A stretch of DNA of 48,243 bases, taken from the sequence record PZ150741.1; one strand, given 5' to 3'. The notes under the pieces are model-generated. The model was not told the DNA's origin. It was given only the letters and a program-made list of their open reading frames with translations, and did no database searches. The translations under genes and the position numbers were made by a program. Shown here in pieces: positions 1 to 48,243 of the stretch. Numbering within the stretch: position 1 is the first letter of the stretch; the number at the start of each line of letters is the position of its first letter. The DNA is from a phage.

Positions 1-35
1 GGAGATGCAACAATACAAACACCAATAAAATTTAC

Positions 36-64
36 TTGCACACTAAGATAGAATATGCTACTAT
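36..64 (+). promoter_or_regulatory. sigma70-like promoter (TTGCAC-17 bp-TACTAT)
   Basis: -35 TTGCAC at 36-41, 17-bp spacer, -10 TACTAT at 59-64; followed by conserved leader AACGAGAGGAGAGG and ATG at 95. Confidence 0.6.
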
Positions 65-94
65 TCATTTACACAAACGAGAGGAGAGGCAGAT

Positions 95-244
95 ATGGTT
101 ACTTTGATGGTTATGGAGTTCGAAAACAGCACCGCAACTTACCGCGAGATGACTATGGCGCAGGCGTATCACCTGGCCTCAAACGGCAACTTCTACAAGG
201 CCCAAATCATCAACGAGTTCGGGGTAATTGACTATGAATTTTAA
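95..244 (+). CDS. hypothetical small protein (49 aa)
   Basis: ATG at 95 preceded by GAGGAGAGG Shine-Dalgarno; stop overlaps next start (ATGA); below the 60-aa ORF-track cutoff. Confidence 0.45.
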   Translation: MVTLMVMEFENSTATYREMTMAQAYHLASNGNFYKAQIINEFGVIDYEF

Positions 245-506
245 CAGTTACACCGTTACCGTTGATTTTGAGGGGCTGGAGCTGCCCCTCCCTAACAACT
301 ACCGGTATATCTCACGCGACTGTAACGGGTTTATTCAGGGGTGGCGGAACAAACCGACAGATACTGAGTTCGGGATGTCTGGCGGGGAAGAGTTGCCGAT
401 CACTTTCGGACATCAGAGTAGCAACGAAGAACTTAAAACCGTGATTCGTAAGTATCGCCGCCGCGGTAACACCGGACTTATAGCAATAACAGGCGCGGTT
501 GAATAA
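234..506 (+). CDS. hypothetical protein (90 aa)
   Basis: Track ORF 228-506; first ATG at 234 with GGGG upstream. Confidence 0.5.
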   Translation: MNFNSYTVTVDFEGLELPLPNNYRYISRDCNGFIQGWRNKPTDTEFGMSGGEELPITFGHQSSNEELKTVIRKYRRRGNTGLIAITGAVE

Positions 507-525
507 ACGAGAGGAGAGACAGAAG

Positions 526-744
526 ATGTTCCTGGAATGCAAATCCTATGAAGGCTATTGGGCGCTGACCAAAAACGACCTGTACCACCTCAAAGAAGAC
601 GGCGACGAGAGCCGCTGCTACATAATAGACGACAATGGCACTGAACTTGATGTCTATTACACCGGGTATGGTCGATGGGCGTTATTGGCGGACGATGACT
701 TTGTGTTCGAAGAATATAACGGAGAGGAGCCAGAAGATGAGTAA
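526..744 (+). CDS. hypothetical protein (72 aa)
   Basis: Track ORF 499-744; ATG at 526 preceded by AACGAGAGGAGAGACAGAAG leader/SD. Confidence 0.5.
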   Translation: MFLECKSYEGYWALTKNDLYHLKEDGDESRCYIIDDNGTELDVYYTGYGRWALLADDDFVFEEYNGEEPEDE

Positions 745-1339
745 CAAAAACGAAGTATTAGAATACCTGATTGACCAGCTACGGCAGCAGCTACCGGTAG
801 TAGATGTAATGGGTGAAATAAAACGGTGGAGCATAGACCGTAGTATTGCTGGCCGAGGTAACTATACCGAAGAGGAAAACGCCGTAATCGATGCTTACAT
901 CGGCCTGGAGCACAACCCATACAAGCAACAGTGCGAAGACCTGGCACATGAGGTGCAGTCACTCAAGAATCAGTTACGCGACGCTTCGGCGCTGGTGGCT
1001 GAGTTACAGAGCGACAACATTAAGAAATCTGAGCACATATCGCACCTGTCGGAACTGGTGGACGAGTTGATGGGGACTATAACGTTAATGAACGGGGACG
1101 TTGAGGCTTACAAAGTTCTACGCAAAGGTGGGTACGTGCCTGAGCAATCCGGTTGCCGTAAGGACGATACCCAGGAATGCGAGCATGAGTGGCGATGTGT
1201 GGTAGTTTTTGGGAATAGACTTGGGACCCCGTATTGCCGTAAATGTGGTGCGGCTAAACCTGAAGAATGCAAGCACGAATGGCAATTTTACGGAGTCGGG
1301 TTTCCTTGTATGTGCCTTAAATGCGGGTTAAAGAAATGA
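738..1339 (+). CDS. hypothetical protein, coiled-coil N-terminus and tandem Cys-rich zinc-ribbon-like C-terminus
   Basis: Track ORF 635-1339; ATG at 738 after GGAGAGGAG SD; C-terminus has two repeats of ECxHEW...CxKCG. Confidence 0.5.
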
Positions 1340-1539
1340 CCAGCATCCTTTTTATCTGGGTACTGTCTGCAGGTCAGATGCATCTGGCGGCATCAGAAAC
1401 GTTTTACTCGATGGAGGCGTGCCGGTCAGCGGCACGCGCCGCAGAGAACGCACACTTCCTGTTTCAGGGCGACAAGCCCAACGATTCAGAGGTACGCGCT
1501 ATCTGCTCACCTAAGCGACTTGGTAAACAGGAGAAGTGA
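1336..1539 (+). CDS. hypothetical small protein with hydrophobic signal-peptide-like N-terminus
   Basis: Track ORF 1321-1539; ATG at 1336 overlaps upstream stop (ATGA); N-terminus MTSILFIWVLSAGQMHLAAS. Confidence 0.4.
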   Translation: MTSILFIWVLSAGQMHLAASETFYSMEACRSAARAAENAHFLFQGDKPNDSEVRAICSPKRLGKQEK

Positions 1540-1541
1540 TT

Positions 1542-1790
1542 ATGGTTAAATTATACGCAGAGCGCGATTTAGAAATGCTCGACATGACTAACAATTACTA
1601 TTCAAGACATGTGATGGCTATGACGGAGGAAGGATTGAACAGTAAATCATCTATCGCTGCTGAGTTGGCGTACCGTGACTGGATTATTGATGAACAGCAA
1701 AAAGAGTTACAGAAATACAAAGACCAGTTCCCGGATTACGTCGAGTGCGCGAACTGTGGGTTGGTCACACATGTGGAAGGGGTAGAGTGA
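1542..1790 (+). CDS. hypothetical protein (82 aa)
   Basis: Track ORF 1536-1790; ATG at 1542 after AGGAGAAG. Confidence 0.45.
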   Translation: MVKLYAERDLEMLDMTNNYYSRHVMAMTEEGLNSKSSIAAELAYRDWIIDEQQKELQKYKDQFPDYVECANCGLVTHVEGVE

Positions 1791-1792
1791 TT

Positions 1793-2011
1793 ATGATATT
1801 CAGAGACCGTAGCAGCTTAAGAACACCGGATTGTCCTACGTTCGAGTTCGAAGACAAAGACGGAGATGTATGCTGTATTCAATTTTATAGAGACGATGAA
1901 GGTGAGTGCGGGCTTGTAGAGTTGCAGGTTTACAGTGAAACCGGTTGTGTTGTATTAAGTGCAGATGATGCGGAATCACTAGCTCGTAAGATACTTGAGG
2001 GCGTTAAATGA
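1793..2011 (+). CDS. hypothetical protein (72 aa)
   Basis: Track ORF 1745-2011; ATG at 1793 after GAAGGGG, follows upstream stop. Confidence 0.45.
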   Translation: MIFRDRSSLRTPDCPTFEFEDKDGDVCCIQFYRDDEGECGLVELQVYSETGCVVLSADDAESLARKILEGVK

Positions 2012-2301
2012 GCCTCGCAACTGACATCCTGAAACGAAGCGGCCTTGCGCCGCTGTCACCGAGAGCGAACACCCAAATATACAAGCGCCGCCGTAATGCG
2101 CTGTACCCCGAGATTCAGGCCAGACGCAAAGCTATCCGCGCCTGTGGATTCCAGAACGGGAAGGCCGTGAATCTCGGTGAGTTTAAAACACAGGAACGCG
2201 CAGCAATCGCTAACCGGTTATTTAATTACTGGAAATCGCTGGGGTACGATGATATTCCGACGAAACCACAGAGACGACAATACATCTGGAGACACAAATA
2301 A
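2008..2301 (+). CDS. hypothetical basic protein (97 aa)
   Basis: Track ORF; start overlaps upstream stop; Arg/Lys-rich. Confidence 0.45.
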   Translation: MSLATDILKRSGLAPLSPRANTQIYKRRRNALYPEIQARRKAIRACGFQNGKAVNLGEFKTQERAAIANRLFNYWKSLGYDDIPTKPQRRQYIWRHK

Positions 2302-2376
2302 ACAACTATTAGGATAATTCCTACCCGTGGTATCCTCCAGTTACTGCATACTTAATACGCACCTGGAGGATTCATC

Positions 2377-2685
2377 TTGGATAAATTTACTGAAACAGTG
2401 ACAGGCTGGCTTCTAGCTGCCGCGCTCGCCGGAGGGGTAATCGGACTACGACAACATAAGTCCGTTATTTCTGGCCCCACCGACGGCTTCTGCTTTATTG
2501 CTACTGGCTTCACTTGCGCCGTATTTGGTGCACCTCTTGCCGCTCAATGGTTCGGAATCACGGGCGACCGTGAAATCGCCGGGTTGGGCTTCATTATCGC
2601 TGTTCTCTGGATGCCTATCTATTCCCGTCTATCCAGTATCGTAGCCGGGGAATACATCGCACGTCGAGGAGGCACAGATGAATGA
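2377..2685 (+). CDS. holin-like membrane protein (about 3 TM segments)
   Basis: TTG start after GGAGGA; three hydrophobic segments; directly upstream of second membrane protein and endolysin. Confidence 0.45.
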   Translation: MDKFTETVTGWLLAAALAGGVIGLRQHKSVISGPTDGFCFIATGFTCAVFGAPLAAQWFGITGDREIAGLGFIIAVLWMPIYSRLSSIVAGEYIARRGGTDE

Positions 2686-2950
2686 GTTATTCTGGTTCGG
2701 CGGTATGCTGGCAATCGGGGGCACATCGCTGTTTAATGTGTACCACCCCAGCGTGGACGATGGGTTATTTGGTAGGGTGCTCTATATCCTGACAGCTATC
2801 GTCTGCGCCGCCGGATGTATCCACTTGCTACAGGGCAGCATGTCCCCGACGCTGCCTGAGACGTTAATCACATTAGTTGCGCTGCGCCAGATTCGCCAGG
2901 CGTGGTTGTCATACGGAGGACATAAGCGTGTCTCGAAATATTTCAGATAA
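2678..2950 (+). CDS. holin/antiholin-like membrane protein (2 TM segments)
   Basis: Two hydrophobic helices; overlaps both neighbours in the lysis cassette. Confidence 0.45.
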   Translation: MNELFWFGGMLAIGGTSLFNVYHPSVDDGLFGRVLYILTAIVCAAGCIHLLQGSMSPTLPETLITLVALRQIRQAWLSYGGHKRVSKYFR

Positions 2951-3416
2951 TGGGTTGCATTTTACCGCTGCGTTCGAGGGATTCCGCGGAACTGCGTATC
3001 GTGCTACGCCGAACGAGAAGTACCTGACTATAGGCTATGGAAGCTACGGTCCGCATGTTAAGGCGGGGCAAACCATCACGCCTGGTCAGGGCTTACTATT
3101 ACTTAATCGCGATATGGCTAAAGCCGTAGTTGCGGTTGATGCGGCGGCGCACCACTCATTGACACAGGCGCAGTTCGATGCAGTGTGCGACCTGGTGTAT
3201 AACGCGGGTGCCGGAGTGATTGCGGCTACTACTGGCACAGGTAAGGCACTGCGTTCTGGCGATATTGCGACACTGCGGGCTAAGCTGGCGCTGTTCATCA
3301 ACCAGAACGGCAAACCGTTACTTGGCTTACGTCGTCGCGTAGCTGGTCGCCTGGCGCTGTTCGACGGTAAACCGTGGCAGGAGGCGGAGGCTATTGGACG
3401 TGCGGTGAAAGGTTGA
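2928..3416 (+). CDS. endolysin, GH24 lysozyme (T4/P22 lysozyme-like)
   Basis: GTG at 2928 after GGAGGA; motifs ISDNG, FEGF...YLTIGYG, QFDAVCDLVYNAG, RRRVAGRLALF resemble P22 gp19/T4 e lysozymes. Confidence 0.85.
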   Translation: MSRNISDNGLHFTAAFEGFRGTAYRATPNEKYLTIGYGSYGPHVKAGQTITPGQGLLLLNRDMAKAVVAVDAAAHHSLTQAQFDAVCDLVYNAGAGVIAATTGTGKALRSGDIATLRAKLALFINQNGKPLLGLRRRVAGRLALFDGKPWQEAEAIGRAVKG

Positions 3417-3480
3417 CACATAAGACTAATCCGACGATACTTAAATCACCTCCTGCTCCATCCCTCTGCTCTCCAGTTTT

Positions 3481-3512
3481 ATCCCGGCCCTGACCCAGCC
3501 GGGATTTTTTTT
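3481..3512 (+). terminator. rho-independent terminator after lysis cassette
   Basis: Hairpin ATCCCGGC-CCTGACCCA-GCCGGGAT followed by T8 run. Confidence 0.8.
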
Positions 3513-3534
3513 ATCTATTTTCTGTAATGAATAG

Positions 3535-3563
3535 TTGACTATTACTCTGACCCCAATTATATT
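3535..3563 (+). promoter_or_regulatory. sigma70-like promoter (TTGACT-17 bp-TATATT)
   Basis: Immediately downstream of terminator; followed by AACGAGAACGGAG leader and ATG at 3598. Confidence 0.55.
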
Positions 3564-3597
3564 TACTTCATCGACAACGAGAACGGAGTAGAGAGAA

Positions 3598-3846
3598 ATG
3601 GGCAACGTATCGACGATAGAAATAACCGAAGAACTCGAAGATAAATGCATCGCATGGACTATGGATAATGACCCGGTTGCTATGTGTAAATTTCCAATGA
3701 AAATCACAGATACCGAAGCATTCAAAGACGCACAACTGATGGCACGCATCGCCGTTAGTAACCTGAGCAATAGCATTCCAGCGGACGCGTTCTGGTTCGC
3801 CGCAATGCAGACACTGAAAGCAGCTTATGCAGGAGAGAAGAAATGA
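3598..3846 (+). CDS. hypothetical protein (82 aa)
   Basis: Track ORF; strong SD GGAGTAGAGAGAA. Confidence 0.5.
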   Translation: MGNVSTIEITEELEDKCIAWTMDNDPVAMCKFPMKITDTEAFKDAQLMARIAVSNLSNSIPADAFWFAAMQTLKAAYAGEKK

Positions 3847-4046
3847 ACAACGTCACCGTTGGCGGCATTTATAAGAGTCGTCACTCTTGGAATGAGGGTG
3901 CAAGATTCATTGTAACCGCGGTTGGGTTGGACCACGTGCTTATCGCGGACCACCCATTGATAAAATTCAATGAATCCTATTTGGAATATTGTGTTGGTAG
4001 AAAGGAGTTCGAGACTAAATTTAAGTTTGCAGGAGAGAAGAAATGA
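3843..4046 (+). CDS. hypothetical protein (67 aa)
   Basis: Track ORF; ATGA overlap; SD AGGAGAGAAG. Confidence 0.5.
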   Translation: MNNVTVGGIYKSRHSWNEGARFIVTAVGLDHVLIADHPLIKFNESYLEYCVGRKEFETKFKFAGEKK

Positions 4047-4201
4047 GTGAACAAGGTCAAGTAAGCCAGCCACTACGAGTAGGCCGTAAAGTCAGTCGCA
4101 CCCCGTTCCCGACACGCGAGGAACTGATGAAACGTAACAGTTTCCCGGGGCCGGACAAGAACAAGTATCTCAATCGTATGTGGGGAGAGCGTAAAGAATG
4201 A
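4043..4201 (+). CDS. hypothetical small protein (52 aa)
   Basis: ATG at 4043 after AGGAGAGAAG; ATGA overlap with next gene; below track cutoff. Confidence 0.4.
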   Translation: MSEQGQVSQPLRVGRKVSRTPFPTREELMKRNSFPGPDKNKYLNRMWGERKE

Positions 4202-4368
4202 AAAAGTTAATTGCAGATGTTGAACTCGGTGATGTTATTCGTATTGATGACGACTACGGCGGCTACGACGTAGTGGTGAAGCACATCGAGTGGGATTCTA
4301 CGTTGCCATTTGTCACGATTAACCGTGAAATAATGTTCACTAAAACTGATTGGGTAGAGGTTCGATAA
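4198..4368 (+). CDS. hypothetical small protein (56 aa)
   Basis: ATG at 4198 after GGGGAGAG; below track cutoff. Confidence 0.4.
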   Translation: MKKLIADVELGDVIRIDDDYGGYDVVVKHIEWDSTLPFVTINREIMFTKTDWVEVR

Positions 4369-4541
4369 TGACTAACAACGAATACGAGAAACTTAGCGTA
4401 GAAGCGGCGACCGGTGAATCTGAAATAGCGTGGATTGACGCCAACATCGAGCACTACCTACGGCAAGTAGACATCCTTATGGAACGCCGCCGTGAACTGA
4501 TTAACCGCTTCAACCTGAACAAAGGTGACGCCAATGCCTAA
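4368..4541 (+). CDS. hypothetical protein (57 aa)
   Basis: Track ORF 4350-4541; ATG at 4368 overlaps upstream TAA. Confidence 0.45.
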   Translation: MTNNEYEKLSVEAATGESEIAWIDANIEHYLRQVDILMERRRELINRFNLNKGDANA

Positions 4542-4719
4542 AATCACAATTGCATCACTAGAGCGCCGTATTCTGGTGCTCGAGTCAGAGAAACAGACGT
4601 TAGGCGGTCAACTGTCGATTAACGGCGAGTTTCAACTGGAGGCGTTTAAGATGCTACTTGAACGCATGAAGGACGAGGAAGATTGGGCGCATTCCTTGCA
4701 AGACCTCTGGCAATACTAA
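4534..4719 (+). CDS. hypothetical coiled-coil protein (61 aa)
   Basis: Track ORF 4525-4719; ATG at 4534 after AAAGGTGA. Confidence 0.45.
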   Translation: MPKITIASLERRILVLESEKQTLGGQLSINGEFQLEAFKMLLERMKDEEDWAHSLQDLWQY

Positions 4720-10586: not shown

Positions 10587-10614
10587 AAAAGGCCCCTTTC
10601 GGGGCCTTAGTTTT
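10587..10614. terminator. bidirectional terminator AAGGCCCC-TTTC-GGGGCCTT
   Basis: 8-bp GC stem flanked by A-run and T-run; lies between convergent genes. Confidence 0.8.
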
Positions 10615-10837
10615 AAACTTCCACGTCTATCACCAAATCACCAGGCATGGTTATGACTATTTTATCGTTTTCATAGAACGGGCTAAGAGGCTCATTTTCA
10701 GACTGCAAACGTAAAGTTAGCTTTTTACCACCAAAATAATCTATGTAACGAACCCAGTACCACTCATCGAATACCTGTACCTTTTCTCCCGGGAGTACAT
10801 CTCTAGCTTTCTTTTGGTTCATAAATCTAATCGGCAT
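10613..10837 (-). CDS. hypothetical protein (74 aa), reverse-oriented accessory gene
   Basis: Track ORF with GGAGG SD; own promoter upstream and terminator downstream. Confidence 0.55.
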   Translation of the reverse strand: MPIRFMNQKKARDVLPGEKVQVFDEWYWVRYIDYFGGKKLTLRLQSENEPLSPFYENDKIVITMPGDLVIDVEV

Positions 10838-10863
10838 AAATACCTCCTGTTTAAGTTGGCTGA

Positions 10864-10892
10864 ATAGTACCCTATTATGTTGGGGTGCGCAA
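10864..10892 (-). promoter_or_regulatory. sigma70-like promoter (TTGCGC-17 bp-TACTAT) for 10613-10837
   Basis: Reverse complement reads TTGCGCACCCCAACATAATAGGGTACTAT; near-identical to promoters at 19711 and 42572. Confidence 0.65.
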
Positions 10893-10958
10893 ACTATTTA
10901 TTTACCCATTCCAGTTATTACACCAAAGTGTAAATGATGGAATAAACTATTCGAATAG

Positions 10959-10987
10959 TTGACTTTTCACTAAAAATGTGCTAAGCT
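10959..10987 (+). promoter_or_regulatory. possible promoter (TTGACT-17 bp-TAAGCT)
   Basis: Good -35, weaker -10; at the head of a 316-bp non-coding stretch. Confidence 0.3.
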
Positions 10988-11165
10988 CCACCTGAGCTTG
11001 TGAAGTATGAACAAGCGACCGCGGCGCGGGCAGGTAACGGAGCGGGACGTAAGTCCTGAGTGTAGTTACGCTGACGCGTTCGGAAGGGCCATACTCTATT
11101 GCTTGTGTGAAAAGTAACTGGTTTACTGAGATTACGCCGTTTCTATGTTTAAATGATAAGGGCTA

Positions 11166-11194
11166 GCGCCCCGCTTTATGGCGGGGCTTTACTT
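11166..11194 (+). terminator. terminator/attenuator-like hairpin GCCCCGC-TTTATG-GCGGGGC plus TTT
   Basis: 7-bp GC stem with short U tract about 20 nt upstream of spanin start. Confidence 0.45.
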
Positions 11195-36523: not shown

Positions 36524-36552
36524 ACTATAATAGCTTACTATTCAGGTGTCAA
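36524..36552 (-). promoter_or_regulatory. sigma70 consensus promoter (TTGACA-17 bp-TATAGT)
   Basis: Reverse complement TTGACACCTGAATAGTAAGCTATTATAGT; palindrome CCGGGCAGTTCCCGG in the leader. Confidence 0.7.
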
Positions 36553-39114: not shown

Positions 39115-39143
39115 ACTATAATAGCGAACTATTCACATGTCAA
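39115..39143 (-). promoter_or_regulatory. sigma70 consensus promoter (TTGACA-17 bp-TATAGT)
   Basis: Reverse complement TTGACATGTGAATAGTTCGCTATTATAGT. Confidence 0.7.
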
Positions 39144-39165
39144 TGGGCTTTTCTAAAATAATTAA

Positions 39166-39176
39166 TATGGTACTAT
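39166..39176 (+). promoter_or_regulatory. possible extended -10 promoter (TGGTACTAT) for HTH gene
   Basis: TG-n-TACTAT about 30 nt upstream of ATG 39208; no clear -35. Confidence 0.3.
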
Positions 39177-39207
39177 TCACATATCAACTGACTAAGGAGT
39201 AACTGAC

Positions 39208-39423
39208 ATGCAACCATCTGAACTAGGCATCCGTGTAGAACAACGCCGCAAAGAACTCGGCATCTCCCAGCGCCGTCTGGCGGTCCTGGCCGGGGTTTCC
39301 CAGGGCGCAATTAACCAACTTGCACTTGGAGTAACTCAGGACGTCCGCCCGGCGACGCTGTTTAAACTGGCGGAAGTTCTGCAAGTAGACGCTAAGTGGC
39401 TGGCGTTCGGTGAAGGGGCTTAA
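39208..39423 (+). CDS. XRE/Cro-type HTH transcriptional regulator
   Basis: LGISQRRLAVLAGVSQGAINQL HTH signature; AAGGAG SD. Confidence 0.7.
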   Translation: MQPSELGIRVEQRRKELGISQRRLAVLAGVSQGAINQLALGVTQDVRPATLFKLAEVLQVDAKWLAFGEGA

Positions 39424-42571: not shown

Positions 42572-42600
42572 TTGCACACCCCAACATAATAGGATACTAT
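42572..42600 (+). promoter_or_regulatory. sigma70-like promoter (TTGCAC-17 bp-TACTAT)
   Basis: TTGCACACCCCAACATAATAGGATACTAT; followed by AACGAGACAGAGGAG leader and ATG 42635. Confidence 0.65.
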
Positions 42601-42634
42601 TCACTTATCGAAACGAGACAGAGGAGTGAGGGTT

Positions 42635-43530: not shown

Positions 43531-43611
43531 TTTTTGTTCTATTTCACGAAACGCAACAATTGAAGCTACTATTGCAGGAGATGCAACAATACAAACACCA
43601 ATAAAATTTAC

Positions 43612-43640
43612 TTGCACACTAAGATAGAATATGCTACTAT
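43612..43640 (+). promoter_or_regulatory. sigma70-like promoter, copy of 36-64
   Basis: Duplicate within repeat. Confidence 0.6.
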
Positions 43641-43670
43641 TCATTTACACAAACGAGAGGAGAGGCAGAT

Positions 43671-43820
43671 ATGGTTACTTTGATGGTTATGGAGTTCGAA
43701 AACAGCACCGCAACTTACCGCGAGATGACTATGGCGCAGGCGTATCACCTGGCCTCAAACGGCAACTTCTACAAGGCCCAAATCATCAACGAGTTCGGGG
43801 TAATTGACTATGAATTTTAA
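43671..43820 (+). CDS. hypothetical small protein (copy of 95-244)
   Basis: Duplicate within repeat. Confidence 0.45.
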   Translation: MVTLMVMEFENSTATYREMTMAQAYHLASNGNFYKAQIINEFGVIDYEF

Positions 43821-44082
43821 CAGTTACACCGTTACCGTTGATTTTGAGGGGCTGGAGCTGCCCCTCCCTAACAACTACCGGTATATCTCACGCGACTGTA
43901 ACGGGTTTATTCAGGGGTGGCGGAACAAACCGACAGATACTGAGTTCGGGATGTCTGGCGGGGAAGAGTTGCCGATCACTTTCGGACATCAGAGTAGCAA
44001 CGAAGAACTTAAAACCGTGATTCGTAAGTATCGCCGCCGCGGTAACACCGGACTTATAGCAATAACAGGCGCGGTTGAATAA
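43810..44082 (+). CDS. hypothetical protein (copy of 234-506)
   Basis: Duplicate within repeat. Confidence 0.5.
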   Translation: MNFNSYTVTVDFEGLELPLPNNYRYISRDCNGFIQGWRNKPTDTEFGMSGGEELPITFGHQSSNEELKTVIRKYRRRGNTGLIAITGAVE

Positions 44083-44101
44083 ACGAGAGGAGAGACAGAA
44101 G

Positions 44102-44320
44102 ATGTTCCTGGAATGCAAATCCTATGAAGGCTATTGGGCGCTGACCAAAAACGACCTGTACCACCTCAAAGAAGACGGCGACGAGAGCCGCTGCTACATA
44201 ATAGACGACAATGGCACTGAACTTGATGTCTATTACACCGGGTATGGTCGATGGGCGTTATTGGCGGACGATGACTTTGTGTTCGAAGAATATAACGGAG
44301 AGGAGCCAGAAGATGAGTAA
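44102..44320 (+). CDS. hypothetical protein (copy of 526-744)
   Basis: Duplicate within repeat. Confidence 0.5.
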   Translation: MFLECKSYEGYWALTKNDLYHLKEDGDESRCYIIDDNGTELDVYYTGYGRWALLADDDFVFEEYNGEEPEDE

Positions 44321-44915
44321 CAAAAACGAAGTATTAGAATACCTGATTGACCAGCTACGGCAGCAGCTACCGGTAGTAGATGTAATGGGTGAAATAAAAC
44401 GGTGGAGCATAGACCGTAGTATTGCTGGCCGAGGTAACTATACCGAAGAGGAAAACGCCGTAATCGATGCTTACATCGGCCTGGAGCACAACCCATACAA
44501 GCAACAGTGCGAAGACCTGGCACATGAGGTGCAGTCACTCAAGAATCAGTTACGCGACGCTTCGGCGCTGGTGGCTGAGTTACAGAGCGACAACATTAAG
44601 AAATCTGAGCACATATCGCACCTGTCGGAACTGGTGGACGAGTTGATGGGGACTATAACGTTAATGAACGGGGACGTTGAGGCTTACAAAGTTCTACGCA
44701 AAGGTGGGTACGTGCCTGAGCAATCCGGTTGCCGTAAGGACGATACCCAGGAATGCGAGCATGAGTGGCGATGTGTGGTAGTTTTTGGGAATAGACTTGG
44801 GACCCCGTATTGCCGTAAATGTGGTGCGGCTAAACCTGAAGAATGCAAGCACGAATGGCAATTTTACGGAGTCGGGTTTCCTTGTATGTGCCTTAAATGC
44901 GGGTTAAAGAAATGA
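44314..44915 (+). CDS. zinc-ribbon-like protein (copy of 738-1339)
   Basis: Duplicate within repeat. Confidence 0.5.
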
Positions 44916-45115
44916 CCAGCATCCTTTTTATCTGGGTACTGTCTGCAGGTCAGATGCATCTGGCGGCATCAGAAACGTTTTACTCGATGGAGGCGTGCCG
45001 GTCAGCGGCACGCGCCGCAGAGAACGCACACTTCCTGTTTCAGGGCGACAAGCCCAACGATTCAGAGGTACGCGCTATCTGCTCACCTAAGCGACTTGGT
45101 AAACAGGAGAAGTGA
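44912..45115 (+). CDS. hypothetical small protein (copy of 1336-1539)
   Basis: Duplicate within repeat. Confidence 0.4.
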   Translation: MTSILFIWVLSAGQMHLAASETFYSMEACRSAARAAENAHFLFQGDKPNDSEVRAICSPKRLGKQEK

Positions 45116-45117
45116 TT

Positions 45118-45366
45118 ATGGTTAAATTATACGCAGAGCGCGATTTAGAAATGCTCGACATGACTAACAATTACTATTCAAGACATGTGATGGCTATGAC
45201 GGAGGAAGGATTGAACAGTAAATCATCTATCGCTGCTGAGTTGGCGTACCGTGACTGGATTATTGATGAACAGCAAAAAGAGTTACAGAAATACAAAGAC
45301 CAGTTCCCGGATTACGTCGAGTGCGCGAACTGTGGGTTGGTCACACATGTGGAAGGGGTAGAGTGA
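45118..45366 (+). CDS. hypothetical protein (copy of 1542-1790)
   Basis: Duplicate within repeat. Confidence 0.45.
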   Translation: MVKLYAERDLEMLDMTNNYYSRHVMAMTEEGLNSKSSIAAELAYRDWIIDEQQKELQKYKDQFPDYVECANCGLVTHVEGVE

Positions 45367-45368
45367 TT

Positions 45369-45587
45369 ATGATATTCAGAGACCGTAGCAGCTTAAGAAC
45401 ACCGGATTGTCCTACGTTCGAGTTCGAAGACAAAGACGGAGATGTATGCTGTATTCAATTTTATAGAGACGATGAAGGTGAGTGCGGGCTTGTAGAGTTG
45501 CAGGTTTACAGTGAAACCGGTTGTGTTGTATTAAGTGCAGATGATGCGGAATCACTAGCTCGTAAGATACTTGAGGGCGTTAAATGA
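45369..45587 (+). CDS. hypothetical protein (copy of 1793-2011)
   Basis: Duplicate within repeat. Confidence 0.45.
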   Translation: MIFRDRSSLRTPDCPTFEFEDKDGDVCCIQFYRDDEGECGLVELQVYSETGCVVLSADDAESLARKILEGVK

Positions 45588-45877
45588 GCCTCGCAACTGA
45601 CATCCTGAAACGAAGCGGCCTTGCGCCGCTGTCACCGAGAGCGAACACCCAAATATACAAGCGCCGCCGTAATGCGCTGTACCCCGAGATTCAGGCCAGA
45701 CGCAAAGCTATCCGCGCCTGTGGATTCCAGAACGGGAAGGCCGTGAATCTCGGTGAGTTTAAAACACAGGAACGCGCAGCAATCGCTAACCGGTTATTTA
45801 ATTACTGGAAATCGCTGGGGTACGATGATATTCCGACGAAACCACAGAGACGACAATACATCTGGAGACACAAATAA
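45584..45877 (+). CDS. hypothetical basic protein (copy of 2008-2301)
   Basis: Duplicate within repeat. Confidence 0.45.
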   Translation: MSLATDILKRSGLAPLSPRANTQIYKRRRNALYPEIQARRKAIRACGFQNGKAVNLGEFKTQERAAIANRLFNYWKSLGYDDIPTKPQRRQYIWRHK

Positions 45878-45952
45878 ACAACTATTAGGATAATTCCTAC
45901 CCGTGGTATCCTCCAGTTACTGCATACTTAATACGCACCTGGAGGATTCATC

Positions 45953-46261
45953 TTGGATAAATTTACTGAAACAGTGACAGGCTGGCTTCTAGCTGCCGCG
46001 CTCGCCGGAGGGGTAATCGGACTACGACAACATAAGTCCGTTATTTCTGGCCCCACCGACGGCTTCTGCTTTATTGCTACTGGCTTCACTTGCGCCGTAT
46101 TTGGTGCACCTCTTGCCGCTCAATGGTTCGGAATCACGGGCGACCGTGAAATCGCCGGGTTGGGCTTCATTATCGCTGTTCTCTGGATGCCTATCTATTC
46201 CCGTCTATCCAGTATCGTAGCCGGGGAATACATCGCACGTCGAGGAGGCACAGATGAATGA
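45953..46261 (+). CDS. holin-like membrane protein (copy of 2377-2685)
   Basis: Duplicate within repeat. Confidence 0.45.
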   Translation: MDKFTETVTGWLLAAALAGGVIGLRQHKSVISGPTDGFCFIATGFTCAVFGAPLAAQWFGITGDREIAGLGFIIAVLWMPIYSRLSSIVAGEYIARRGGTDE

Positions 46262-46526
46262 GTTATTCTGGTTCGGCGGTATGCTGGCAATCGGGGGCAC
46301 ATCGCTGTTTAATGTGTACCACCCCAGCGTGGACGATGGGTTATTTGGTAGGGTGCTCTATATCCTGACAGCTATCGTCTGCGCCGCCGGATGTATCCAC
46401 TTGCTACAGGGCAGCATGTCCCCGACGCTGCCTGAGACGTTAATCACATTAGTTGCGCTGCGCCAGATTCGCCAGGCGTGGTTGTCATACGGAGGACATA
46501 AGCGTGTCTCGAAATATTTCAGATAA
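46254..46526 (+). CDS. holin/antiholin-like membrane protein (copy of 2678-2950)
   Basis: Duplicate within repeat. Confidence 0.45.
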   Translation: MNELFWFGGMLAIGGTSLFNVYHPSVDDGLFGRVLYILTAIVCAAGCIHLLQGSMSPTLPETLITLVALRQIRQAWLSYGGHKRVSKYFR

Positions 46527-46990
46527 TGGGTTGCATTTTACCGCTGCGTTCGAGGGATTCCGGAACTGCGTATCGTGCTACGCCGAACGAGAAGTACCTG
46601 ACTATAGGCTATGGAAGCTACGGTCCGCATGTTAAGGCGGGGCAAACCATCACGCCTGGTCAGGGCTTACTATTACTTAATCGCGATATGGCTAAAGCCG
46701 TAGTTGCGGTTGATGCGGCGGCGCACCACTCATTGACACAGGCGCAGTTCGATGCAGTGTGCGACCTGGTGTATAACGCGGGTGCCGGAGTGATTGCGGC
46801 TACTACTGGCACAGGTAAGGCACTGCGTTCTGGCGATATTGCGACACTGCGGGCTAAGCTGGCGCTGTTCATCAACCAGAACGGCAAACCGTTACTTGGC
46901 TTACGTCGTCGCGTAGCTGGTCGCCTGGCGCTGTTCGACGGTAAACCGTGGCAGGAGGCGGAGGCTATTGGACGTGCGGTGAAAGGTTGA
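46504..46990 (+). pseudogene. endolysin copy disrupted by 2-bp deletion (frameshift)
   Basis: Relative to 2928-3416, CGCG becomes CG at 46561; reading frame breaks after FEGFR; track splits it into 46453-46635 and 46526-46990. Confidence 0.8.
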
Positions 46991-47054
46991 CACATAAGAC
47001 TAATCCGACGATACTTAAATCACCTCCTGCTCCATCCCTCTGCTCTCCAGTTTT

Positions 47055-47085
47055 ATCCCGGCCCTGACCCAGCCGGGATTTTTTT
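47055..47085 (+). terminator. terminator copy with T7 instead of T8
   Basis: Same hairpin as 3481-3512, one T shorter. Confidence 0.8.
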
Positions 47086-47107
47086 ATCTATTTTCTGTAA
47101 TGAATAG

Positions 47108-47136
47108 TTGACTATTACTCTGACCCCAATTATATT
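47108..47136 (+). promoter_or_regulatory. sigma70-like promoter, copy of 3535-3563
   Basis: Duplicate within repeat. Confidence 0.55.
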
Positions 47137-47170
47137 TACTTCATCGACAACGAGAACGGAGTAGAGAGAA

Positions 47171-47419
47171 ATGGGCAACGTATCGACGATAGAAATAACC
47201 GAAGAACTCGAAGATAAATGCATCGCATGGACTATGGATAATGACCCGGTTGCTATGTGTAAATTTCCAATGAAAATCACAGATACCGAAGCATTCAAAG
47301 ACGCACAACTGATGGCACGCATCGCCGTTAGTAACCTGAGCAATAGCATTCCAGCGGACGCGTTCTGGTTCGCCGCAATGCAGACACTGAAAGCAGCTTA
47401 TGCAGGAGAGAAGAAATGA
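47171..47419 (+). CDS. hypothetical protein (copy of 3598-3846)
   Basis: Duplicate within repeat. Confidence 0.5.
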   Translation: MGNVSTIEITEELEDKCIAWTMDNDPVAMCKFPMKITDTEAFKDAQLMARIAVSNLSNSIPADAFWFAAMQTLKAAYAGEKK

Positions 47420-47619
47420 ACAACGTCACCGTTGGCGGCATTTATAAGAGTCGTCACTCTTGGAATGAGGGTGCAAGATTCATTGTAACCGCGGTTGGGT
47501 TGGACCACGTGCTTATCGCGGACCACCCATTGATAAAATTCAATGAATCCTATTTGGAATATTGTGTTGGTAGAAAGGAGTTCGAGACTAAATTTAAGTT
47601 TGCAGGAGAGAAGAAATGA
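47416..47619 (+). CDS. hypothetical protein (copy of 3843-4046)
   Basis: Duplicate within repeat. Confidence 0.5.
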   Translation: MNNVTVGGIYKSRHSWNEGARFIVTAVGLDHVLIADHPLIKFNESYLEYCVGRKEFETKFKFAGEKK

Positions 47620-47774
47620 GTGAACAAGGTCAAGTAAGCCAGCCACTACGAGTAGGCCGTAAAGTCAGTCGCACCCCGTTCCCGACACGCGAGGAACTGA
47701 TGAAACGTAACAGTTTCCCGGGGCCGGACAAGAACAAGTATCTCAATCGTATGTGGGGAGAGCGTAAAGAATGA
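47616..47774 (+). CDS. hypothetical small protein (copy of 4043-4201)
   Basis: Duplicate within repeat. Confidence 0.4.
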   Translation: MSEQGQVSQPLRVGRKVSRTPFPTREELMKRNSFPGPDKNKYLNRMWGERKE

Positions 47775-47941
47775 AAAAGTTAATTGCAGATGTTGAACTC
47801 GGTGATGTTATTCGTATTGATGACGACTACGGCGGCTACGACGTAGTGGTGAAGCACATCGAGTGGGATTCTACGTTGCCATTTGTCACGATTAACCGTG
47901 AAATAATGTTCACTAAAACTGATTGGGTAGAGGTTCGATAA
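47771..47941 (+). CDS. hypothetical small protein (copy of 4198-4368)
   Basis: Duplicate within repeat. Confidence 0.4.
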   Translation: MKKLIADVELGDVIRIDDDYGGYDVVVKHIEWDSTLPFVTINREIMFTKTDWVEVR

Positions 47942-48114
47942 TGACTAACAACGAATACGAGAAACTTAGCGTAGAAGCGGCGACCGGTGAATCTGAAATA
48001 GCGTGGATTGACGCCAACATCGAGCACTACCTACGGCAAGTAGACATCCTTATGGAACGCCGCCGTGAACTGATTAACCGCTTCAACCTGAACAAAGGTG
48101 ACGCCAATGCCTAA
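47941..48114 (+). CDS. hypothetical protein (copy of 4368-4541)
   Basis: Duplicate within repeat. Confidence 0.45.
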   Translation: MTNNEYEKLSVEAATGESEIAWIDANIEHYLRQVDILMERRRELINRFNLNKGDANA

Positions 48115-48243
48115 AATCACAATTGCATCACTAGAGCGCCGTATTCTGGTGCTCGAGTCAGAGAAACAGACGTTAGGCGGTCAACTGTCGATTAACGGCG
48201 AGTTTCAACTGGAGGCGTTTAAGATGCTACTTGAACGCATGAA
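48107..48243 (+). CDS. hypothetical protein, 3'-truncated by window end (copy of 4534-4719)
   Basis: Duplicate within repeat; ORF runs off the window. Confidence 0.4.
   Translation, partial: MPKITIASLERRILVLESEKQTLGGQLSINGEFQLEAFKMLLERM

Follow-up and report, generated by a model that had tools for sequence, protein, structure and literature searches.

The reverse-oriented gene for a 74-aa protein in the phage DNA analyzed here (sequence record PZ150741.1; 48,243 nt, referred to as the window) appears from sequence comparison to be a moron, more precisely one cargo of a conserved plug-in expression slot. Its promoter, 5'UTR, and terminator are not private to the 74-aa gene and represent a scaffold common to all filled slots. 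We consider it fairly probable that the 319-bp unit is a swappable moron cassette made of a fixed shell, an early promoter read by the host, and a cargo that binds a host factor.

The window belonged to a Kagunavirus-type siphophage and consisted of one 43,576-bp genome unit, after which the first 4.67 kb were repeated. The locus together with its flanks matched 342 phage records; the best matches were Escherichia Kagunavirus phages (Guernseyvirinae) at ~93% identity, and the phage is a virulent E. coli phage. The genes around the locus were arranged in the order portal, Mu-F-like head morphogenesis, Hoc-like decoration, slot, spanins, scaffold, and major capsid, the same order as annotated in the relatives Ro145c2YLVW and Bas70. 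The two copies of the end repeat (1-4670 and 43577-48243) differed at two places, with an indel of 2 nt (CG) at 2987 and one of 1 nt (T) at 3512, and these indels altered the ORF calls (179-aa versus 154-aa ORFs). The repeat could represent terminal redundancy, concatemer assembly, or sequencing error.

The elements of the reverse cassette are listed in Table 1. The 74-aa ORF was present on the minus strand as originally predicted, with an ATG start and an upstream AGGAGG. This AGGAGG lay within a conserved 5'UTR, type A (GTTAACTTAAACAGGAGG), which was common to other cargos, and transcription of the cargo would start near 10857. The hairpin behind the gene had been described as bidirectional. 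In the terminator scan it was called for the minus strand alone (8 pairs, tail TTTTATCATTCT); the plus-strand tail (AGTTTTA, 4 T) is weaker and was not called, so that the description is supported only in part. From its sequence, the hairpin is a probable terminator for the cargo transcript on the minus strand and would stop plus-strand transcription of the Hoc-like gene less strongly. Relative to phages with an empty slot, the insert was 319 bp long and had a GC content of 40.4%, compared with 51% for the genome, and the backbone restarted at ATTCCAG (10908-10914). The cargo ORF itself had a GC content of 39.1%, compared with 51.0% for the genome, which placed it in the lowest 2% of 225-nt windows.

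Table 1. Positions of the cassette elements and related features in the window.
Feature	Position	Strand	Details
Whole insert versus empty-slot relatives	10589-10907	-	Terminator, cargo, ribosome-binding site, promoter, and ~15 nt of AT-rich leader
GC-rich hairpin AAGGCCCC-TTTC-GGGGCCTT	10589-10608		From sequence and terminator scan
Cargo ORF	10613-10837	-	ATG start; 74 aa; 8.8 kDa; pI 5.0; PHROG 8705
Shine-Dalgarno AGGAGG	10843-10848	-	5 nt upstream of the cargo ATG
Promoter-like 32-mer TTGCGCACCCCAACATAATAGGGTACTATTCA	10861-10892	-	-35 TTGCGC, 10887-10892; 17-nt spacer; -10 TACTAT, 10864-10869
Second 32-mer copy	19708-19739	-	One mismatch; before the Imm_superinfect-family gene
Third 32-mer copy	42572-42603	+	Two mismatches; head of a plus-strand cluster of small early-type genes
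Degenerate motif copy TGGTACTATTCA, then regulator gene	39162-39423	+	71-aa HTH_3/DicA-like regulator gene at 39208-39423
Imm_superinfect-family gene	19489-19695	-	Membrane protein; PF14373, E 1.6e-12; 39.6% GC
Exonuclease gene	18320-19450	-	376 aa; behind the Imm gene
76-aa ORF	18093-18323	-	Behind the Imm gene
Core copy without TTGCRC -35	36527-36544	+	Runs antisense to the 3' end of a 424-aa gene on the minus strand
Core copy without TTGCRC -35	3528-3545	-	
Candidate small RNA	10960-11192	+	Strong terminator at 11168-11187
Inverted repeat region	10908-10959		TTACAC-caaa-GTGTAA within ATTCCAG...TGGAAT

The slot was surveyed in 39 IMG/VR loci, with the Hoc-like protein as anchor, and in three GenBank relatives, giving 42 evaluable slot loci with the window itself counted. 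The slot was empty in 9 of the 42, where it comprised 81 bp with the hairpin only, and no promoter, ribosome-binding site, or ORF was found in any of these nine. The remaining 33 slots were filled with 13 unrelated cargos, whose ORFs ranged from 33 to 242 codons. A promoter of the TTGCGC-17-TACTAT class, with the pattern TTGCRNAC.CCAAYATAATAGGGTACTATTCA, was present in all 33 filled slots and in none of the nine empty ones. Along with this promoter, all filled slots had in common the Shine-Dalgarno sequence and the 3' junction, at which the stop codon passed straight into TAAAACTAAGGCCCC-loop-GGGGCCTTTT. The stem of the terminator was constant and its loop variable, and it was always preceded by the junction TAAAACTAAGG (n=33). 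The breakpoints of replacement lay at the promoter/5'UTR and stop codon/terminator junctions. Three types of 5'UTR were distinguished, and the 173-aa cargo was found with two of them. These types resembled UTRs behind other motif promoters in the genome, and the slot UTR of one locus (L015) was nearly equal to the early-region UTR of Bas70.

The cargos were the 74-aa gene, which among the 42 loci occurred in the window and Ro145c2YLVW alone; a 67-aa ORFan in 4 loci; a beta-clamp-domain-like protein of 173 aa in 9 loci; ORFans of 81, 83, and 57 aa; a 70-aa membrane protein; a 94/106-aa protein; a pair of 92 and 62 aa; a 242-aa N6/N4 DNA methyltransferase (PF01555, E 1.7e-29); a set of three genes (61, 76, and 102 aa); a 141/179-aa endonuclease-VII/HNH-like protein; and a 33-aa membrane peptide, in some cases accompanied by a 114-aa lipoprotein. 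The 74-aa cargo was absent from the IMG/VR loci L004-L041 (n=38) and occurred in only 5 of the 342 related GenBank records. Presence or absence among relatives, the comparison proposed with the original prediction, took the form of a clean polymorphism, with 9 empty and 33 filled slots. An ORF that is not conserved, in a region variable only in length, had been named as the outcome that would speak against a moron; this is not what we found, because the slot varied in content and not in length alone. The moron reading agreed with the nine empty relatives lacking ORF and promoter, with the promoter-like site and terminator around the gene, and with its atypical GC content. Neither the window nor Bas70 contained a slot cargo of another phage at a further locus, so that transfer of cargos from one locus to another is something we infer.

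Some loci showed further variation. The endonuclease-VII/HNH-like protein had 179 aa in L038 and 141 aa in L020, where the remainder lay in another frame; the L020 ORF looks like a decaying cargo, and homing-type endonucleases may be among the users of the slot. Two genomes that also carried the 74-aa cargo had a second reverse insert between the portal and Mu-F-like head genes (L046, 4357-5225; L051, 4361-5225), which contained a 53-aa ORF, a Vut_1 (queuosine-precursor transporter family) gene, and a 244-aa ORF. The same junction measured only 36 bp in the window.

When two mismatches were allowed, the promoter-like 32-mer occurred at three sites in the window, with 0 expected by chance, and no match was obtained in 100 dinucleotide-preserving shuffles. 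The match of the cargo promoter to the 19.7-kb site, given as 32 of 33 positions in the original prediction, was essentially right (one mismatch in the 32-mer), and the likeness to the early promoter at 42572 was upheld with two mismatches. An 18-nt core, ATAATAGNNNACTATTCA, was found at six distinct sites (0 expected) and was kept even at sites without a TTGCRC -35 element (36527, 39118, and 3528), while more degenerate copies of the motif lay at 36-67 and 39162-39179. Two tandem copies (39118-39179, plus strand) preceded the HTH_3/DicA-like gene inside the minus-strand replication block. The copies at 39118-39179, 36527-36544, and 3528-3545 may be operators rather than promoters. A palindrome, AATAG-N4-CTATT, was contained in the 32-mer and overlapped the -10 element. 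The hexamers of the cargo promoter matched the sigma-70 consensus at 7 of 12 positions, and the site at 10861-10892 was not called by a generic promoter scan. In fBC-Eco01, PHIRE had yielded the same motif, on the opposite strand, at seven sites listed as "phage promoters" (PMC9825357). Assignment of these sites as phage RNA-polymerase promoters was rejected, as no RNA polymerase was annotated in Bas70. A -10 element of TATAAT or CATAAT within the spacer was likewise rejected, as there was no -35 element 16-18 nt upstream.

Copies of the motif headed the early gene cluster, the Imm gene, the 74-aa cargo, and the HTH regulator gene (two copies). Because neither an RNA polymerase nor a sigma factor was annotated in Bas70, host polymerase was taken to be the reader of the motif sites, and early transcription of the cargo by the host enzyme, as originally proposed, is plausible. 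The weak sigma-70 match (7/12) and the palindrome in the conserved spacer, which suggests a phage regulator, speak against this; the 71-aa HTH_3/DicA-like protein is a candidate binder of the palindrome. The most likely scheme would be early transcription by host polymerase followed by repression by the HTH protein. In the RNA-seq data of Kagunavirus K1B4, an HTH gene was among four early genes and an Imm-like gene was classed as late (PMC12645636); this early HTH gene is presumably the homologue of the motif-bearing HTH gene of the window. The time points lay far beyond the 30-min latent period and phage reads made up <9% (PMC12645636), so that these data are too coarse to settle promoter timing and do not resolve the 74-aa gene.

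The near-identical promoter at 19.7 kb headed a different kind of block. The original prediction had counted this block as the first of two single-gene morons, which did not hold because the exonuclease gene and the 76-aa ORF follow the Imm gene on the same strand, giving three minus-strand genes. Among 17 close relatives, the Imm gene occupied this site in all 17 and no hypervariability was found at the sister promoter, indicating that the motif alone does not make a hotspot. In Bas70 and L069, a 107-108-aa signal-peptide protein was present at this site in place of Imm.

The 74-aa protein matched PHROG 8705 (E 9.5e-22; residues 8-73 on profile positions 4-69 of 73), a family of 60-80 aa proteins from enterobacterial phages and prophages that includes gp49 of Salmonella phage Chi and of which the window protein is a member. 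No significant match was obtained against Pfam, NCBIfam, or PADLOC or in a sequence-profile search of the PDB; SH3_16, at E 0.13, was all that appeared. A tblastn search detected homologues of the gene in 114 phage records, of which only five (three phages) were Kagunavirus records, with 81-93% identity, and phages with this cargo include Ro145clw, Ro145c2YLVW, and ZCEC5; Sashavirus and Klebsiella phages showed 60-66% and Chi-like phages (Chi gp49) ~43%. Two large protein searches returned 36 representatives at 50% clustering and 81 clusters, all annotated as "hypothetical" and all from enterobacterial phages and prophages. The Chi-like, Sasha-like, and lambdoid homologues were co-directional members of operons of small early or nin-type genes, whereas the stand-alone reverse cassette was seen only in a few Kagunaviruses.

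Structure prediction, also proposed at the outset, gave a confident result. Two AlphaFold2 runs with alignments of 14 and 68 sequences produced the same six-strand beta-barrel (pLDDT 81.8 and 84.1), resembling domain I of EF-P/eIF5A, and the top 36 Foldseek hits to the model were eIF5A or EF-P only. A BFVD fold search returned only uncharacterised small phage proteins with weak E-values. The predicted fold is that of a KOW/SH3-like barrel of the EF-P/eIF5A domain I type. In contrast to EF-P, eIF5A, and EfpL, which have OB-fold domains II/III, the 74-aa protein is a single domain without them, and its family has no detectable sequence homology to the N-terminal KOW-like domain (EFP_N). EFP_N (PF08207) did not match the window protein and, among 22 relatives, matched one below the cut-off (E 0.042); hhalign of the family against E. 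coli EF-P gave a probability of 0.1. A modifiable Lys/Arg at the tip of the beta3-beta4 hairpin was not conserved (GGKK here; G-TT, G-SE, A-SG, and similar forms elsewhere). The conserved positions of the family were P16, R30, Y31, Q45, L51, and the acidic loop E47-D58, and R30-Y31, Q45, and this loop lay away from the EF-P tip. No catalytic motif, signal peptide, or transmembrane segment was found in the protein. The domain also occurred as the C-terminal module of longer proteins, two with an HD_4 (RelA/SpoT-type hydrolase) N-terminus and others with Ead/Ea22-like N-terminal regions, and the Sashavirus homologue lay 1 kb from an HD_4 gene. The HD_4 fusions and this neighbour hint at a link between the family and translation or alarmone biology.

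Taken as a mechanism, the swappable cassette would work as follows. It would have been inserted opposite to its neighbours, between the Hoc-like gene and the conserved small-RNA-like element before the spanins. Its shell, consisting of the repeated-motif promoter, a short 5'UTR carrying a strong ribosome-binding site, and the GC-rich terminator with the stop codon joined to it, would serve as a plug-in socket that relatives keep while the inner ORF is swapped (at least 13 cargos) or that is absent with the whole insert. Host sigma-70 RNA polymerase would fire the cargo promoter and the other motif promoters at the start of infection, and the phage HTH repressor would later shut them through the palindrome over the -10 element, with ATAATAGGGTACTATTCA as the candidate target stretch. 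As in PeSL cassettes, cargos would move in and out by recombination within the conserved shell. The acidic 74-aa beta-barrel, presumably a small accessory protein that binds a host factor, would bind a host protein or an RNA-protein complex stoichiometrically, in host takeover or counter-defence, and would be dispensable for the core lytic cycle.

Several other explanations were weighed against this one. That the 74-aa ORF is spurious or decaying, and the slot a mere variable intergenic spacer, might be suggested by its short length, lack of a Pfam family, and rarity among relatives, but this is scarcely credible given a dN/dS of 0.10-0.29 among the Kagunavirus copies (dS up to 0.83), its spread through several phage genera (114 phage records, 81 protein clusters), a confident and reproducible predicted fold, and a strong ribosome-binding site; the ORF is a real, conserved gene. 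We regard as unlikely, with somewhat more in its favour, a promoter of a phage-factor-dependent (middle or delayed) class, in which the spacer and the -10-proximal motif would be the site of a phage activator. The 7/12 match to sigma-70 is weak, the core is conserved at three sites without the -35 element, and the motif has been labelled "phage promoters" via PHIRE (PMC9825357). However, the motif also stands before the first genes of the early-type cluster, which unmodified host polymerase must read, neither RNA polymerase nor sigma factor is annotated in Bas70, and the presumed homologue of the HTH gene is early in K1B4.

The function of the cargo may also be read differently. A role in superinfection exclusion or inter-phage competition, guarding the infected cell from secondary phages, would fit the near-identical promoter at 19708, which drives an Imm_superinfect-family gene, and the presence among the alternative cargos of a lipoprotein and small membrane proteins, as is typical for exclusion functions. 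We rate this role as quite unlikely. The cell envelope is where most known exclusion proteins act, whereas the 74-aa protein is a predicted soluble beta-barrel without signal peptide or transmembrane segment. It is very unlikely that the family consists of stand-alone mimics of EF-P/eIF5A domain I docking on the translation apparatus or the tRNA acceptor end. Such a protein would imitate EF-P domain I at the ribosome or at the acceptor end of P-site tRNA, or decoy the EF-P-modifying enzyme; alternatively, it would dock on tRNA 3' ends against toxSAS-type defences (CapRel, FaRel2). The two HD_4 fusions and the HD_4 gene near the Sashavirus homologue point in this direction, as does the chemistry of toxSAS enzymes, which pyrophosphorylate tRNA CCA ends and are counteracted by small alarmone hydrolases (doi 10.1101/2021.04.30.441581; PMC9712102). 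If this were true, the free protein would disturb translation or shield it, for instance from defences acting by modification of tRNA 3' ends, and the C-terminal module would bring HD_4 alarmone/pyrophosphate hydrolases to their substrate. Against it stand the lack of any sequence relation to EF-P (hhalign 0.1; EFP_N in 1/22 at E 0.042), the variable tip residue where EF-P-type proteins carry the modified Lys/Arg, the acidic character of the protein (pI 5.0), the absence of an HD_4 gene from the window phage, and the fusion of the same domain to unrelated N-terminal regions.

The moron concept was developed by Hendrix and co-workers for lambdoid and HK97-like phages. The swappable cassette resembles a moron in being an extra gene of atypical base composition (39% versus 51% GC), with its own promoter-like site and terminator, inside a conserved operon and cleanly absent in some relatives. 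It differs in that the promoter and terminator form a socket reused by 13 cargos rather than belonging to one gene, and in that the window phage is virulent, so that the 74-aa gene cannot serve lysogenic conversion. The closest described analogue of the slot is the PeSL (promoter-early stem-loop) cassette of T4-like phages (PMC2839356), a repeated early-type promoter with a Shine-Dalgarno sequence and a stem-loop terminator that flanks ORFans in variable regions and whose terminator insulates neighbouring late genes (PMC2839356, PMC4122927). The slot combines the same kinds of parts, and, as with PeSL, ORFan insertions, deletions, and replacements between close relatives map to it. In contrast, the PeSL promoter is identical or near-identical to the sigma-70 consensus, whereas the slot promoter matches only 7/12 positions. 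The PeSL stem-loop is stable and embedded in or overlapping the promoter motif, while in the slot 250 bp separate the promoter from the GC-rich stem-loop, which is found at the cargo's 3' end, and the promoter has only the short AATAG-N4-CTATT palindrome over the -10 element. PeSL is present in ~50 copies, compared with one dominant hotspot here (three near-identical motif copies and six core sites). Recombination between PeSL copies yields mini-circles or moves ORFs between loci; in the slot, UTR types were common to several loci, and no cargo was found at a second locus in the window or Bas70.

Swappable slots are commonplace among phage accessory loci and leave current views of phage genome plasticity unchanged; the one unusual feature of the locus is the EF-P-domain-I-like fold of its cargo. 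The slot is of practical value: in a virulent coliphage of 43.6 kb it forms a compact expression socket of natural origin, which leaves the flanking head and lysis genes undisturbed and offers a ready-made payload site for engineered phages. In the literature, the genus Kagunavirus is called an attractive synthetic-biology model (PMC11990801). The slot cargos, including the methyltransferase, the clamp-like protein, the lipoprotein, and the ORFans, provide a catalogue for screening of counter-defence and exclusion functions, and the small, widespread 74-aa family, with its EF-P/eIF5A domain I-like fold, provides a concrete and testable lead.

A candidate small RNA was located 68 bp from the moron promoter, in divergent orientation. 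It had a -35 element (TTGACT) and an extended -10 element (TGC-TAAGCT), and a predicted transcript of ~200 nt (10989-11192), which a strong terminator would end immediately ahead of the spanin gene. The element showed at least 95% identity over 266 nt in 180 phage records, including Salmonella phages; in the wider 1.8-kb search, many Salmonella records showed only 60-80%. This region is annotated as a 36-aa ORF in Bas70, and 1-nt indels break the frame in five relatives, while one hairpin showed compensatory double changes. A search of Rfam, at the gathering threshold over the window and at E<5 around the locus, returned nothing relevant, and a tRNA scan detected no tRNA. The imperfect inverted repeat between the two divergent promoters (Table 1) occurred in every relative, whether the slot was filled or empty, and may be a regulator site or a hairpin.
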